Below are positions 12,296 to 14,896 of a stretch of 64,000 nt of DNA, piece after piece. The notes under the pieces were generated by a model. It saw nothing but the letters and a program-made list of their open reading frames with translations, was not told the origin of the DNA and did no database searches. Position numbers and translations under genes: made by a program. Origin of the DNA: an uncultured Planctomycetota bacterium (GTDB lineage: Bacteria; Planctomycetota; Planctomycetia; Isosphaerales; Isosphaeraceae); assembly GCA_963737655.1 (NCBI GenBank), contig CAVTTN010000002.1, forward strand, positions 3,136,001-3,200,000. Direction: 5' to 3'. The first letter of the stretch is position 1. The number at the start of each line of letters is the position of its first letter.

Positions 12296-12640
12296 GGCAT
12301 TTCCCCCGCCGCGCCGGCCGACGATCGGCGGCGGGCCCTCTCAGTTTCCGCGACGAGCCTTGCCCTCGGCAACTCCTTTCCCTGAGTCCTGAATCCCATC
12401 GGGCCGTTCCTGTCGGAAGGAATCCCCGGGCGATTCACCACAAGGGGACCAGGATGACGGGCGAGGACGGGGAGGAAGACGCTTCTTCGCGAGACGTATA
12501 GCGTCCTTCGTGGGCCTCATGCTCCAACCCGCCCGGACCGGCACGGAATCCACGACGAATCGGCTCCTGGATGGCTCGGGCAGCCGTTTTCGGCGACGAT
12601 CGGCGGGCCATCGTGAATCTGGAATCGTGGAGACCGAGCC

Positions 12641-13276
12641 ATGAACGGGATGGGACGGGAGCCGCTCCTGTCGCTTCGCCTGGAATCTGCCCTGCGCCGG
12701 GCGGCCTCCTGGCACGCCGCCGAAGTTCGCAAAGGGTCTCAAGTCCCTTATTTCGCCCATCCGGTCGCCGTTGCGATGATCCTCGATCGCCTGGGGTTCG
12801 ACGAGGACGTGGTGATTGCCGGGCTGCTCCACGACGTGGTGGAAGACACTGACGCGACCCCCGAGGACGTCCTCCGCGAGTTCGGCCCCCGGGTCTCGCG
12901 ACTGGTGGCCGATCTTTCCGAGCGAAAAGTGGACGATCTAGGCGCGAAACGGCCGTGGATCGACCGGAAGACCGAGCATATCGACCATCTGGCCGGCGCC
13001 TCGGTCGAATCGCGGGCGATCGCCCTGGCGGACAAGCTCCACAACCTCACGAGCATCGAGTTCGACCTGGCCGAGGGGAGGCCGGTCTGGTCGCTGTTCA
13101 ACGCCAGCCGGGAGAGCGTCCTCTGGTACTATCGGACCAGCATCGAGCGTTATTCGTTCGAGACGCCGGAACTCGCCGAGCTGGCCGGGGCGTGCCGGGC
13201 GGTCCTGGATCGCGTGACGAGGGACACGGCGGCACCGGCCGGAAAAATCGTTTCGGAGGGGGTTCCGGCCCGTTGA
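12641..13276 (+). CDS. HD-domain protein, small alarmone hydrolase (Mesh1/SpoT-hydrolase-like)
   Basis: RKGSQVPYFAHP, GLLHDVVED, ADKLHNL; no synthetase domain. Confidence 0.8.
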   Translation: MNGMGREPLLSLRLESALRRAASWHAAEVRKGSQVPYFAHPVAVAMILDRLGFDEDVVIAGLLHDVVEDTDATPEDVLREFGPRVSRLVADLSERKVDDLGAKRPWIDRKTEHIDHLAGASVESRAIALADKLHNLTSIEFDLAEGRPVWSLFNASRESVLWYYRTSIERYSFETPELAELAGACRAVLDRVTRDTAAPAGKIVSEGVPAR

Positions 13277-13300
13277 TCCCCCGGACGAAATGCGTATAGT
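13273..13300 (+). promoter_or_regulatory. Candidate sigma-70 promoter TTGATC-N16-TATAGT
   Basis: Near-consensus hexamers immediately before a multi-hairpin region that starts at about 13307. Confidence 0.45.
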
Positions 13301-13306
13301 GTCTCT

Positions 13307-13510
13307 GTCGGCTGGGATTCACCCCCCAGCCGGCTCGGGTCGCGCAGAACGTAGCGCGACGGACTAAAGCCCGCTCCTGCTCGAGGCTGGACTCCCGCCG
13401 GACCGGGGAGGCCCGTTTTGCAAAGGGGGTGATCGCGTGTGTAGTGACAACCAGAGGCGGCTCGCCTAACGGCAGCCGACGGGTTGCCCGTCGGGCAGCC
13501 GCATCTTTTC
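13307..13510 (+). ncRNA. Putative structured small RNA or leader containing a micro-ORF
   Basis: Hairpins at 13307-13334, 13339-13360, 13392-13410 and 13476-13494, ending in TCTTTT; unassigned to any family. Confidence 0.4.
13437..13469 (+). CDS. Putative 10-aa micro-ORF MCSDNQRRLA
   Basis: GTG start preceded by AAAGGGGGTGATC (13422-13434) at canonical SD spacing; TAA stop. Confidence 0.4.
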   Translation: MCSDNQRRLA

Positions 13511-13593
13511 GGCTTGTGAGATCGATCCGGCCGGGCCCGATGTTCTCGGGCCCGGTCGGGTCCCCAAGACCCTCGGGGACGGACGGAGAGACC

Positions 13594-13707
13594 ATGACCC
13601 CTCGGCCGGAAACCACGATCGCGGAGGCGTCCCTCGCCGCAGGCGGGTGGTATTGGCTGTTTACGGGGTCGGATTCCTCGGGTCCTGGGGCCGGATCGAG
13701 CGTCTAA
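13594..13707 (+). CDS. Aromatic amino acid attenuator leader peptide (37 aa, contains WYWLF)
   Basis: GGAGAG RBS, ATG at 13594, codons TGG TAT TGG CTG TTT at 13648-13662, stop at 13705-13707; upstream of a terminator and aroF. Confidence 0.75.
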   Translation: MTPRPETTIAEASLAAGGWYWLFTGSDSSGPGAGSSV

Positions 13708-13736
13708 TCGCCACGCTCTCCGAAAGCGAATCACCG

Positions 13737-13772
13737 AAGCCCCGGGACCCGAGCGGTCCCGGGGCTTTTTTT
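13737..13772 (+). terminator. Intrinsic terminator of the attenuator
   Basis: 13-bp stem AAGCCCCGGGACC / GGTCCCGGGGCTT with a 5-nt loop, followed by a T run. Confidence 0.9.
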
Positions 13773-13883
13773 GTCGGTCGAGGCGAGGTCCGGGGGTCGG
13801 GCCTCGGCGGTTTCGCAGGTTCGGCGGGGGTCGCGGCGGGCCTCCTGAGGCTCGCCGACCCTCGCCCGGGAGGACGGGGCACC

Positions 13884-14896
13884 GTGATCGTCGTGATGAA
13901 GCCGGAGGCGACGGCCGACCAGATTGACGGGGTGGCCGCGCACATCACGGCCCTCGGGATGACGCCCCAGGTCATCCGAGGGACCGAAACCACCGTGATC
14001 GCCGCCATCGGCGAGGAGCGCGAGGGGCTGGCCGAGGCGTTGGAGCCGGGCGCGGGGGTCGAAAAGGTCCTGCCGATCCGCGCCCCTACAAGAGGGCGTC
14101 CTCGGAGCTCAAGGCCGAGAGGACCGTGGTCCGCGCCGGCAGCCTGGAGATCGGCGGGAAGAAGATCGGCGTGATCGCCGGCCCCTGCTCGGTCGAGAGC
14201 GAGGCCCAGATCGTCGCCCTCGCCCGGACGCTCAAGGCCAGGGGGGCCACGGGTTTGCGAGGAGGCGCGTTCAAGCCCCGGACCAGCCCCTATAGCTTCC
14301 AGGGCCACAAGGAAGACGGCCTCAAGATGCTGGCCGCCGCCCGCGAGGCCACGGGCCTGGCGATCGTCACTGAGGTCATGGCCCCGGAACACGTCCCGAT
14401 GGTCGCCCGATACGCCGACGTCCTCCAGATCGGCGCCCGCAACATGCAGAACTATCAACTCTTGCAGGCCGTCGGCGACAGCGGCAAGCCGGCCCTCCTG
14501 AAGCGGGGGATGAGCGCCACCGTTGATGAGTTCCTGCTCGCCGCGGAGTACATTCTCGATCGAAACAACCCGAACGTGATGCTTTGCGAGCGAGGCATCC
14601 GCACGTTCGAGGACCACACCCGGTTCACCCTGCCCCTGTCGGTCGTGCCCTACCTGCACGACAAGAGCCACTTGCCTGTGGTGGTCGATCCCTCGCACGG
14701 GACGGGCAAGGCGAAGCTCGTGGCGCCGATGGCGAAGGCGGCGGTGGCGTGCGGGGCGGACGGATTGATCATCGAGGTCCACGACGACCCCGCCCACGCC
14801 ATGAGCGACGGCTCCCAGACCATCACCCCGGCCGCCTTCGCCGCGCTGATGGCCGAGTGCCGACGGGTGGCCGAGGCGGTGGATCGGAGCCTCTAG
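13884..14896 (+). CDS. aroF: DAHP synthase (type I-beta with N-terminal regulatory domain), frameshift near 14080
   Basis: MIVVMKP start, [48 protein letters not shown]. Confidence 0.9.

Follow-up and report, generated by a model that had tools for sequence, protein, structure and literature searches.

The described RNAs that most resemble the one reported here are rreB and its kin, CC2171, and Ms_IGR-5. According to the main text of PMC5711450, rreB binds the 30S subunit, is weakly translated, and is stabilised once its start codon is removed; 20-fold overproduction of rreB did not slow growth, ribosomes were judged to be far more numerous than the RNA, and genes of this type were reported in Alphaproteobacteria only. 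CC2171 (RF01867) is expressed, and the parts of bioRxiv 10.1101/2022.01.24.477521 that concern it do not give a function. Ms_IGR-5 (RF02471) is presented as an sRNA with ribosome footprints in the relevant part of PMC4974804 and as an uncharacterised, NAD-capped RNA in that of bioRxiv 10.1101/2021.12.14.472595, and its expression is mentioned in PMC8079986, PMC10454040, and PMC8780764.

A single-copy RNA that is present in four of five genomes of a class, has covarying tertiary contacts, and has no entry in Rfam is rare. We describe such an RNA from the Planctomycetota. We analysed a window of 64,000 nucleotides from an uncultured member of the Isosphaeraceae, and positions below are those of the window. 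An Rfam scan, which the sequence-only reading of this DNA had proposed, gave only sub-threshold matches at the locus; the three kinds of RNA named above are related to it. Within the literature that we searched (subscription papers were outside its scope), neither the planctomycete RNA nor its contacts nor its second Shine-Dalgarno (SD) site is described. Planctomycete names are absent from the main texts of PMC8632094 and PMC11109978, and the supplement of the latter may bear on novelty.

A conserved transcript of about 200 nt

The sequence-only reading had proposed a self-contained transcript with a promoter (TTGATC-N16-TATAGT), three 5' hairpins, the extended SD sequence AAAGGGGGTGATC, an ORF of ten codons, and a final TCTTTT. 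All of these are present (Table 1). The promoter is the sole promoter-like site across 12500-14200 (1 found, 0.1 expected), and transcription probably starts near 13307. Across 20 aligned members of the family, the -35 and -10 boxes are kept and the spacer between them is variable. Furthermore, a promoter-like pattern lies 5' of 30 of the 95 homologs, as compared to 2 of 95 control stretches. At the locus the folding z-score is -2.59, and 3 of 200 shuffles folded equally well. At the other end, a hairpin with a U-run is found 3' of 67 of 92 homologs and of 3 of 92 control stretches. In the host genome the hairpin at 13528-13558 has no U-run, so the RNA may end either near 13509 or near 13560. 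These signals, the conservation in single copy, and the confinement of RNA contigs to the element (both below) bear out the proposal of a self-contained transcript.

Table 1. Features at the locus (positions in the window).
Feature	Position	Strand	Remarks
HD_4-domain gene (neighbour, outside the RNA)	12641-13276	+	PF13328, E 3e-22; stop overlaps the -35 box
Promoter, sigma-70-type	13273-13300	+	TTGATC (13273-13278), 16 nt, TATAGT (13295-13300)
RNA element	13307-13503	+	putative ~200-nt transcript
H1 hairpin	13307-13334	+	present only in the window's family
H2 hairpin	13339-13360	+	loop CGT 13350-13352; predicted kiss with the GACG loop of P6
P3 long arm	13361-13414	+	apical loop CTGG 13387-13390
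SD1, extended SD (AAAGGGGGTGATC)	13422-13434	+	13 nt complementary to the host 16S tail
Micro-ORF, GTG...TAA	13437-13469	+	10 codons, MCSDNQRRLA
SD2, internal SD-like site	13453-13459	+	GAGG 13454-13457, 6 nt upstream of the final sense codon
P5/P6 long hairpin	13457-13502	+	contains codons 8-10 plus the stop
P6 stem	13471-13488	+	GACG cap 13478-13481; 95.5% paired
3' end region	13504-13558	+	short U-run 13504-13509 (TCTTTT at the same place), then hairpin 13528-13558
Aromatic amino acid attenuator (separate element)	13594-13772	+	37-codon leader with WYWLF, plus terminator

The terminator loop carries GTATCT or CTATCT in 17 of the 95 homologs (L124, L137, L172, L401, L418, L432, L439, and others) and in no control. 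This loop is complementary to AGATAC in the 790 region of the host 16S rRNA and, weakly, to the SD.

Four metatranscriptomes from four studies contain contigs from relatives over 13330-13510 (446, 919, 1, and 4 contigs), and almost none on the flanks of the element; even a run of 1.5 million letters gave one element contig. These contigs document presence in RNA libraries, for relatives only, rather than ends, strand, or level. In the two metatranscriptomes with 446 and 919 contigs, which are from soil or plants, the summed depth inside the element is 1e5-1e6; as a total over organisms, this depth measures expression poorly, conservation is lower in the flanks, and the scarcity of contigs on the flanking genes is not evidence that they are weakly expressed. 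In one run (X5), a contig with a depth of about 5000 goes from 13495 back to 13348 (in H2), with 39 other letters between. The back-joint might be a tandem copy, a circular RNA, or an assembly artefact, and its letters matched none of the loci that we fetched.

Within the Isosphaeraceae, full-length DNA matches were found in 31 of the 36 genomes with any match. For more distant genomes we used two models, R1 (built from 55 sequences) and R2 (built from 71). R1 finds exactly one copy in 123 of 151 genomes of the class. R2 finds one copy in 60 of 151 genomes of the phylum, of which 52 are outside the class; the 91 genomes without a match may lack the element or may be too distant. The named matches include Gemmataceae, Pirellulales, and Phycisphaerales. 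Plasmid records had no match to the element. An IMG/VR contig (L484, 49.6 kb) contains the whole element at 310-483 (99 bits), possibly as host DNA next to a provirus; each of the remaining 31 viral matches to the SD-start pattern is below 16 bits.

A housekeeping-like spread in single copy would suit a bulk store of ribosomes, modelled on 6S RNA and pRNA: an abundant RNA would park 30S subunits or initiation complexes during starvation and release them when translation of the ORF opens the fold. The 446 and 919 contigs on the element with almost bare flanks, and two docking sites for the anti-SD (below), point the same way. But contig depth is subject to the limits just given, and in rreB, according to the main text of PMC5711450, the 20-fold overproduction had no slowing effect on growth and ribosomes were judged to far outnumber the RNA. 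We consider a bulk store unlikely.

Neighbouring genes

The sequence-only reading took the small alarmone hydrolase gene upstream and the attenuator downstream as a hint of starvation or translational control. We searched neighbouring genes against Pfam at 52 of 59 picked loci, omitting the window itself and six loci with weak coding scores. Besides the window, HD_4 is upstream at 1 of the 52 loci and DAHP synthase is downstream at 7. The hint is thus a local one, and the alarmone and attenuator neighbours are a case of local synteny.

The leader at 13594-13772 is probably an attenuator before DAHP synthase, as Pfam DAHP_synth_1 is found downstream of it. The reading frame of the window's DAHP synthase gene (13884-14896, + strand) shifts near 14080-14090, between an N-terminal part that begins at 13884 and the catalytic part. 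In relatives this gene is a single ORF, and the frame change reflects a sequencing error or a pseudogene. Aromatic clusters like WYWLF are present at L042 and L428, and none was seen at L124 and L137.

A riboswitch-like leader had also been suggested. If the RNA were a cis-acting leader (an attenuator or a riboswitch) of the downstream gene, here DAHP synthase, this would fit the seven other loci with DAHP synthase, which come from several families; at L124 and L137, DAHP synthase follows the terminator and no separate leader was seen. But the RNA is not consistently 5' of related genes on the same strand. Of the 42 downstream ORFs that were identified, 23 are on the opposite strand (convergent) and 19 are on the same strand; the latter include the seven DAHP synthases, and most of the same-strand genes are unrelated. 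Moreover, the DAHP synthase of the window has its own attenuator. With convergent downstream genes in 23 of the 42 cases, the leader is unsupported, and we consider it very improbable.

Covariation supports a caged ORF

We propose 50 base pairs for the RNA. In alignment A1, 88.0% of the cells at these positions are paired and 29 of the 50 pairs show double changes; none of 500 shuffles scored as high, and slid controls gave 28-45%. Double changes occur at every pair of the H2 stem (7/7) and of the upper three helices of P3 (13/13). P5 is 96.4% paired, and one of its pairs switches between C-G (37 sequences) and U-A (18 sequences); the basal helix of P3 is weak (70.5% paired). Kinship among the homologs inflates all of the covariation and structure counts given here, so that their independence is overstated.

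The sequence-only reading had drawn a hairpin at 13476-13494. This hairpin can form, but it is not favoured (82.4% paired, no double change, and 500 of 500 shuffles as high), and we rejected it as the main fold. The supported form is the GACG-capped stem at 13471-13488 within 13457-13502. A twister-like or kink-turn fold was dropped after we inspected the alignment by eye.

Because the long-range contacts are nearly invariant in A1, we tested them on distant homologs. This alignment (A2) has 95 matches, of which 86 were parsed; the others were one duplicate and 8 whose aligned stretch had no SD or ORF that could be parsed. A kiss of a GACG loop that is held by two C-G pairs is known from a retroviral RNA. 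Here, the loop of H2 (CGX) is predicted to kiss the loop of P6 (YCG), and the third position can pair in 75 of the 86 homologs (C-G in 36, U-A in 35, A-U in 2, and U-G in 2). As parsed, the 11 others are G/A (6), A/A (2), C/A (1), a missing loop (1), and a parsing slip (1) that is C-G by eye. In the predicted pseudoknot, the P3 loop CTGG (13387-13390) pairs with CCAG in the ORF (13451-13454). Across the homologs, the P3 loop pairs better with its own ORF than with the ORFs of others (14.3 versus 12.0 when permuted, sd 0.26, 0 of 2000 permutations), and it does so with 62 distinct helices in 86 sequences, starting anywhere from +4 to +24. This range led us to reject a "ring clamp" that is fixed to the mRNA entry channel as a general model. 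Overall, four helices and two long-range contacts, which would cage the ORF, have support from covariation. The SD-ORF unit and the hairpins are kept among relatives, a point that the sequence-only reading had wanted checked.

In the window's family, one side of the H1 loop, TCACCCCC (13319-13326), could form 8 bp with the main SD, and the unusual GGGGG of the window's SD is matched by CCCCC in H1. The H1 loop can pair over at least 5 bp with the SD or the start codon at 57 of 66 parsed loci (H1 is absent from a few of the 66), and its mean pairing score is 15.5, as compared to 10.8 (sd 0.3) for shuffled loops.

Two variants of the fold were also seen. Pirellulales-type members (L067, L075, L086, L104, L109, and L166) have an additional hairpin inserted in P5/P6, and by eye their stop codon pairs with the 3' strand (TGA/TCA or TAA/TTA), with L188 as an exception. 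In one frame group, 14 of 38 members have, 3' of the RNA, a hairpin with a GATCACC-type copy of the 16S tail; this hairpin (L393, L425, L433, L443, L447, and others; 3' of P5) is possibly a counterpart of H1.

Loops of this kind raise another explanation, in which the RNA is a trans-acting sRNA or a protein sponge that is tuned by its own translation, and its loops or a freed 3' strand act on other RNAs or on proteins. It would account for an independent transcript with variable neighbours, for the anti-SD-like loops of several lineages (H1, and the GATCACC-type stretch 3' of the RNA, the latter in 16 of 86, versus 1 control), and for the recurrent terminator loop (17 of 95, versus 0 controls). 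But the conserved loops are explained by covarying contacts within the molecule, and we consider a role in trans decidedly unlikely.

Two SD sites and a micro-ORF with a fixed stop

The sequence-only reading estimated that SD1 could pair with 16S rRNA over about 12-13 nt with one G-U pair. Against the host tail, taken from the three 16S copies in the genome, we find 13 nt with one G-U, provided that the mature end extends through CCUCCUUU. Genome-wide, only 11 entries reach 13 nt with at most one G-U, and 4 of these are the antisense strand of three rRNA genes. In homologs SD1 is mostly GGAGGTGRTC, and its pairing with the host 16S tail, allowing G-U, is at least 11 nt in 85 of 86 (range 10-19 nt).

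We parsed the ORF as the first start that gives 7-20 codons, which does not choose the position of the stop. In the 86 parsed homologs the ORF has 8-15 codons. It starts with GTG (60), ATG (14), or TTG (12) and stops with TAA (36), TGA (32), or TAG (18). Relative to P5 the ORF is in two main frames (47 and 38 homologs, plus 1 other), and yet the stop is 10, 11, or 13 nt after the start of P5 in 83 of 86. Since the stop is fixed to P5 despite the two frames, it is the reading event that is kept: selection maintains the path of the ribosome and the place where it stops, not one peptide. Codon 7 illustrates this. Near the host genome it is AGG, GGG, or GAG, which encode three residues and always give an SD-like run.

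That run is SD2. In the window it is weak (4-5 bp), and many homologs have GAGGTG. Pairing with the anti-SD peaks 4-5 nt before the last sense codon, much as the SD1 peak is 5 nt before the start. SD2 reaches -4 kcal/mol or lower in 81 of 86 homologs, as compared to 195 of 400 ends of long ORFs in the host genome, and the mean pairing energy of the region is -8.9 versus -4.0 at those ends. Nine of the 86 have no 4-nt SD core at SD2, and the G-richness of SD2 is partly demanded by pairing in P5. Internal SD sites are known to act on elongating ribosomes in prfB and dnaX.

The sequence-only reading also listed a micropeptide mRNA and the conservation of the peptide as something to check. The ORF is always intact, but the peptides, although conserved within lineages, diverge between them. 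Because the frame relative to the RNA varies as well, this proposal is weakened. In its stronger form, the RNA would be a small-protein gene whose effector is a peptide of 8-15 residues, often with a cysteine, and whose fold throttles synthesis. Besides the intact ORF, this could explain why, in close relatives, indels from the start to AAC come in steps of three, why codons 4 and 9 and the stop show synonymous changes, and why cysteine makes up 8.9% of residues. In contrast, GAGGYGG is read in different frames, as R-R/W-L or R-G-G in the Planctomycetota and as E-V-A in the Actinomycetota and Acidobacteriota. AAC CAG is invariant in 80 of 80 close relatives, as the pairing requires; codons 3-5 are partly fixed by our search pattern; and 23 of 86 peptides have no cysteine. 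We think it quite improbable that the peptide is the effector. We also rejected cysteine sensing: 63 of 86 peptides have a cysteine, but 23 do not, and there is no consistent sulfur gene downstream.

A possible mechanism

In the model that we prefer, and to which we give a chance just short of even, a ribosome is held at the start and at the stop of the micro-ORF, and the fold and lifetime of the RNA are set by translation. The best explanation of the data is that the working part is the encounter between RNA and ribosome, not the peptide.

As shown by covariation, the free RNA is predicted to fold into a cage (H2, the P3 arm, and P5/P6) that is closed by the pseudoknot, which involves the middle codons of the ORF, and by the kiss between H2 and P6. 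With the cage closed, a loop would remain that contains SD1, the weak start codon, and a few further codons, and in the window's family the loop of H1 could also cover SD1 or the start. The 30S subunit would grip SD1 very tightly and initiate slowly. Elongation would require breaking the pseudoknot and unwinding P5, which would free SD2. With the stop codon in the A site, SD2 would be at the normal SD spacing and could grip the 16S tail again, and so the ribosome might dwell a second time, at termination, with the cage open. One RNA would then hold one ribosome at two stations. Depending on the ease of initiation, elongation, and recycling, the RNA would be either closed and stable or open and then degradable or active, and it could thereby act as a gauge of translation capacity. 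We infer translation, ribosome binding, and both dwell points of the planctomycete RNA; against the two stations, SD2 has only 4-5 bp in the window and is partly a requirement of P5. The common geometry, in which the pseudoknot lies between an SD1 at the start and an SD2 at the stop, makes this a concrete, testable model. If ribosome storage or gauging is true, it would be translational control by RNA only, of a type not described in the literature that we searched.

Comparison with known RNAs

As described in the main text of PMC5711450, rreB and rreR resemble the planctomycete RNA in being independent transcripts (rreB is ~165 nt) with an extended SD that is partly hidden by structure, a GTG start, a short ORF, and a non-conserved genomic context. 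The window RNA also has a GTG start and a short ORF on an independent transcript. In contrast, rreB and rreR are defined by a 16S complementarity of 16-17 nt that reaches the start codon, and the window RNA, with 13 nt and one G-U, falls short of the at least 16 nt that this definition implies. Their ORFs have 14-18 codons, and that main text describes no pseudoknot, kiss, or second SD.

CC2171 matches the window locus with 16.4 bits (E 2.8, driven by the SD; the cut-off is 75), and the locus is not among the two best CC2171 matches in the host genome. A general SD-plus-start pattern mostly found Alphaproteobacteria; 17 of 20 tested loci matched CC2171, 6 of them above the cut-off, and R1 gives at most 17 bits on CC2171-type loci. 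CC2171 has the same SD and the same spacing to GTG or ATG, a terminator, and a short ORF that pairs, through its early codons, with a distant strand. That strand is the 3' end, which covers codons 3-5; the ORFs are mostly 14-27 codons, and CC2171 does not share the 3' helix motif.

A pattern of SD, stop, and P6 loop also matched loci in the Actinomycetota, three of them above the cut-off of Ms_IGR-5. The RF02471 model finds matches in 29 of 98 Actinomycetota genomes (three unpublished genomes omitted). It gives no match at the window locus at E up to 10, so that the locus falls short of 45 bits, and R2 gives only 16-25 bits on Ms_IGR-5 members. We examined 39 Ms_IGR-5 loci: in 22 of them the ORF has 11-14 codons, and all 22 place the stop 13 nt beyond GGTGG; nine have no ATG, GTG, or TTG (some have CTG or ATA by eye); 3 were unparsed, and the remainder are duplicates. 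Thus Ms_IGR-5, which is termed an sRNA in the parts of the literature cited above, has a conserved ORF and a fixed stop.

Like the planctomycete RNA, Ms_IGR-5 has an extended SD on the 5' side and mostly a non-AUG start. It has a conserved GAGGUGGCU, in which GGUGGCU pairs with a 3' AGYCACC, the counterpart of P5. The planctomycete RNA shares the SD, the short ORF, and a GAGGYGGCU helix whose 5' strand is closely followed by the stop; its distance from GGYGG to the stop is 11, 12, or 14 nt, as compared to 13 nt in Ms_IGR-5. A loop of Ms_IGR-5 pairs with the ORF just upstream, most clearly GGAC with GUCC; this loop-ORF test was weaker (12.8 versus 11.1 when permuted, sd 0.5, maximum 13.0), and end-finding failed in several rows. 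The pseudoknot loop of Ms_IGR-5 is in the 3' terminal hairpin, whereas in the planctomycete RNA it is in the 5' P3 arm and no 3' terminal loop pairs with the ORF. Ms_IGR-5 lacks H1, H2, and P3 upstream of its SD, and a GACG kiss was not seen.

In the Acidobacteriota, the core pattern is found in 16 of 121 genomes, as compared to 3 for the reversed control, and the stop is at the same 13 nt in 13 of 17 pattern matches. The same distance is found at one Syntrophobacter locus and at one locus from the phylum of G322. The strict core pattern is found in 2 of 121 genomes of the phylum of G322, one of which looks real (L722), and in 1 of 81 (doubtful) in the phylum of G321. R2 has no match in G321, G322, or G324. 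We take none of these results as absence. A structured GC-rich stretch precedes the SD at L711, L714-L720 (Acidobacteriota), and L722; at L706-L708, L712, and L524, a promoter is directly upstream of the SD. The Acidobacteriota members and L722 may bridge the two architectures. Other units with an extended SD and a short ORF fit neither model well (L534, L545, and L587, from Gaiella and kin; L542, from Gemmatimonadetes; and L246, L260, L303, and L311).

Two well-known RNAs resemble the planctomycete RNA only in how they may work: tmRNA has a short internal ORF within pseudoknots, and 6S RNA holds a machine and is released through the making of a short product. The window RNA is neither. ARAGORN finds no tmRNA in the window, and the host tmRNA is at C2:55719-56086; the window RNA has no tRNA-like domain and has its own SD and start for the ORF. 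For 6S RNA and SRP RNA, the best Rfam matches are elsewhere in the host genome. The host has a 6S-like RNA (L029) at C2:3414197-3414358 on the - strand, which scores 42.3 bits and narrowly misses the Rfam cut-off of 46.4.

The models of the different RNAs do not detect each other's members above threshold, so the case for a common ancestry depends on the motif and the geometry that they share. We tentatively suggest, as possible though rather doubtful, that a single old class of housekeeping RNA spans these phyla and comprises the Planctomycetota RNA, Ms_IGR-5, and the elements of the Acidobacteriota and Desulfobacterota, rreB and CC2171 being reduced or convergent versions of it. In this class, two SDs and a self-locking micro-ORF would hold a ribosome at the start and at the stop, ribosomes would be stored or gauged much as RNA polymerase is by 6S RNA, and the pseudoknot arm would have moved between the 5' and the 3' side.

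In summary, the element is an undescribed RNA family of the Planctomycetota that resembles rreB in its presumed working and Ms_IGR-5 in its core, and that belongs to neither by the features that define them; rreB and CC2171 are looser analogues. The planctomycete RNA thereby ties together the orphan entries Ms_IGR-5, CC2171, and rreB.
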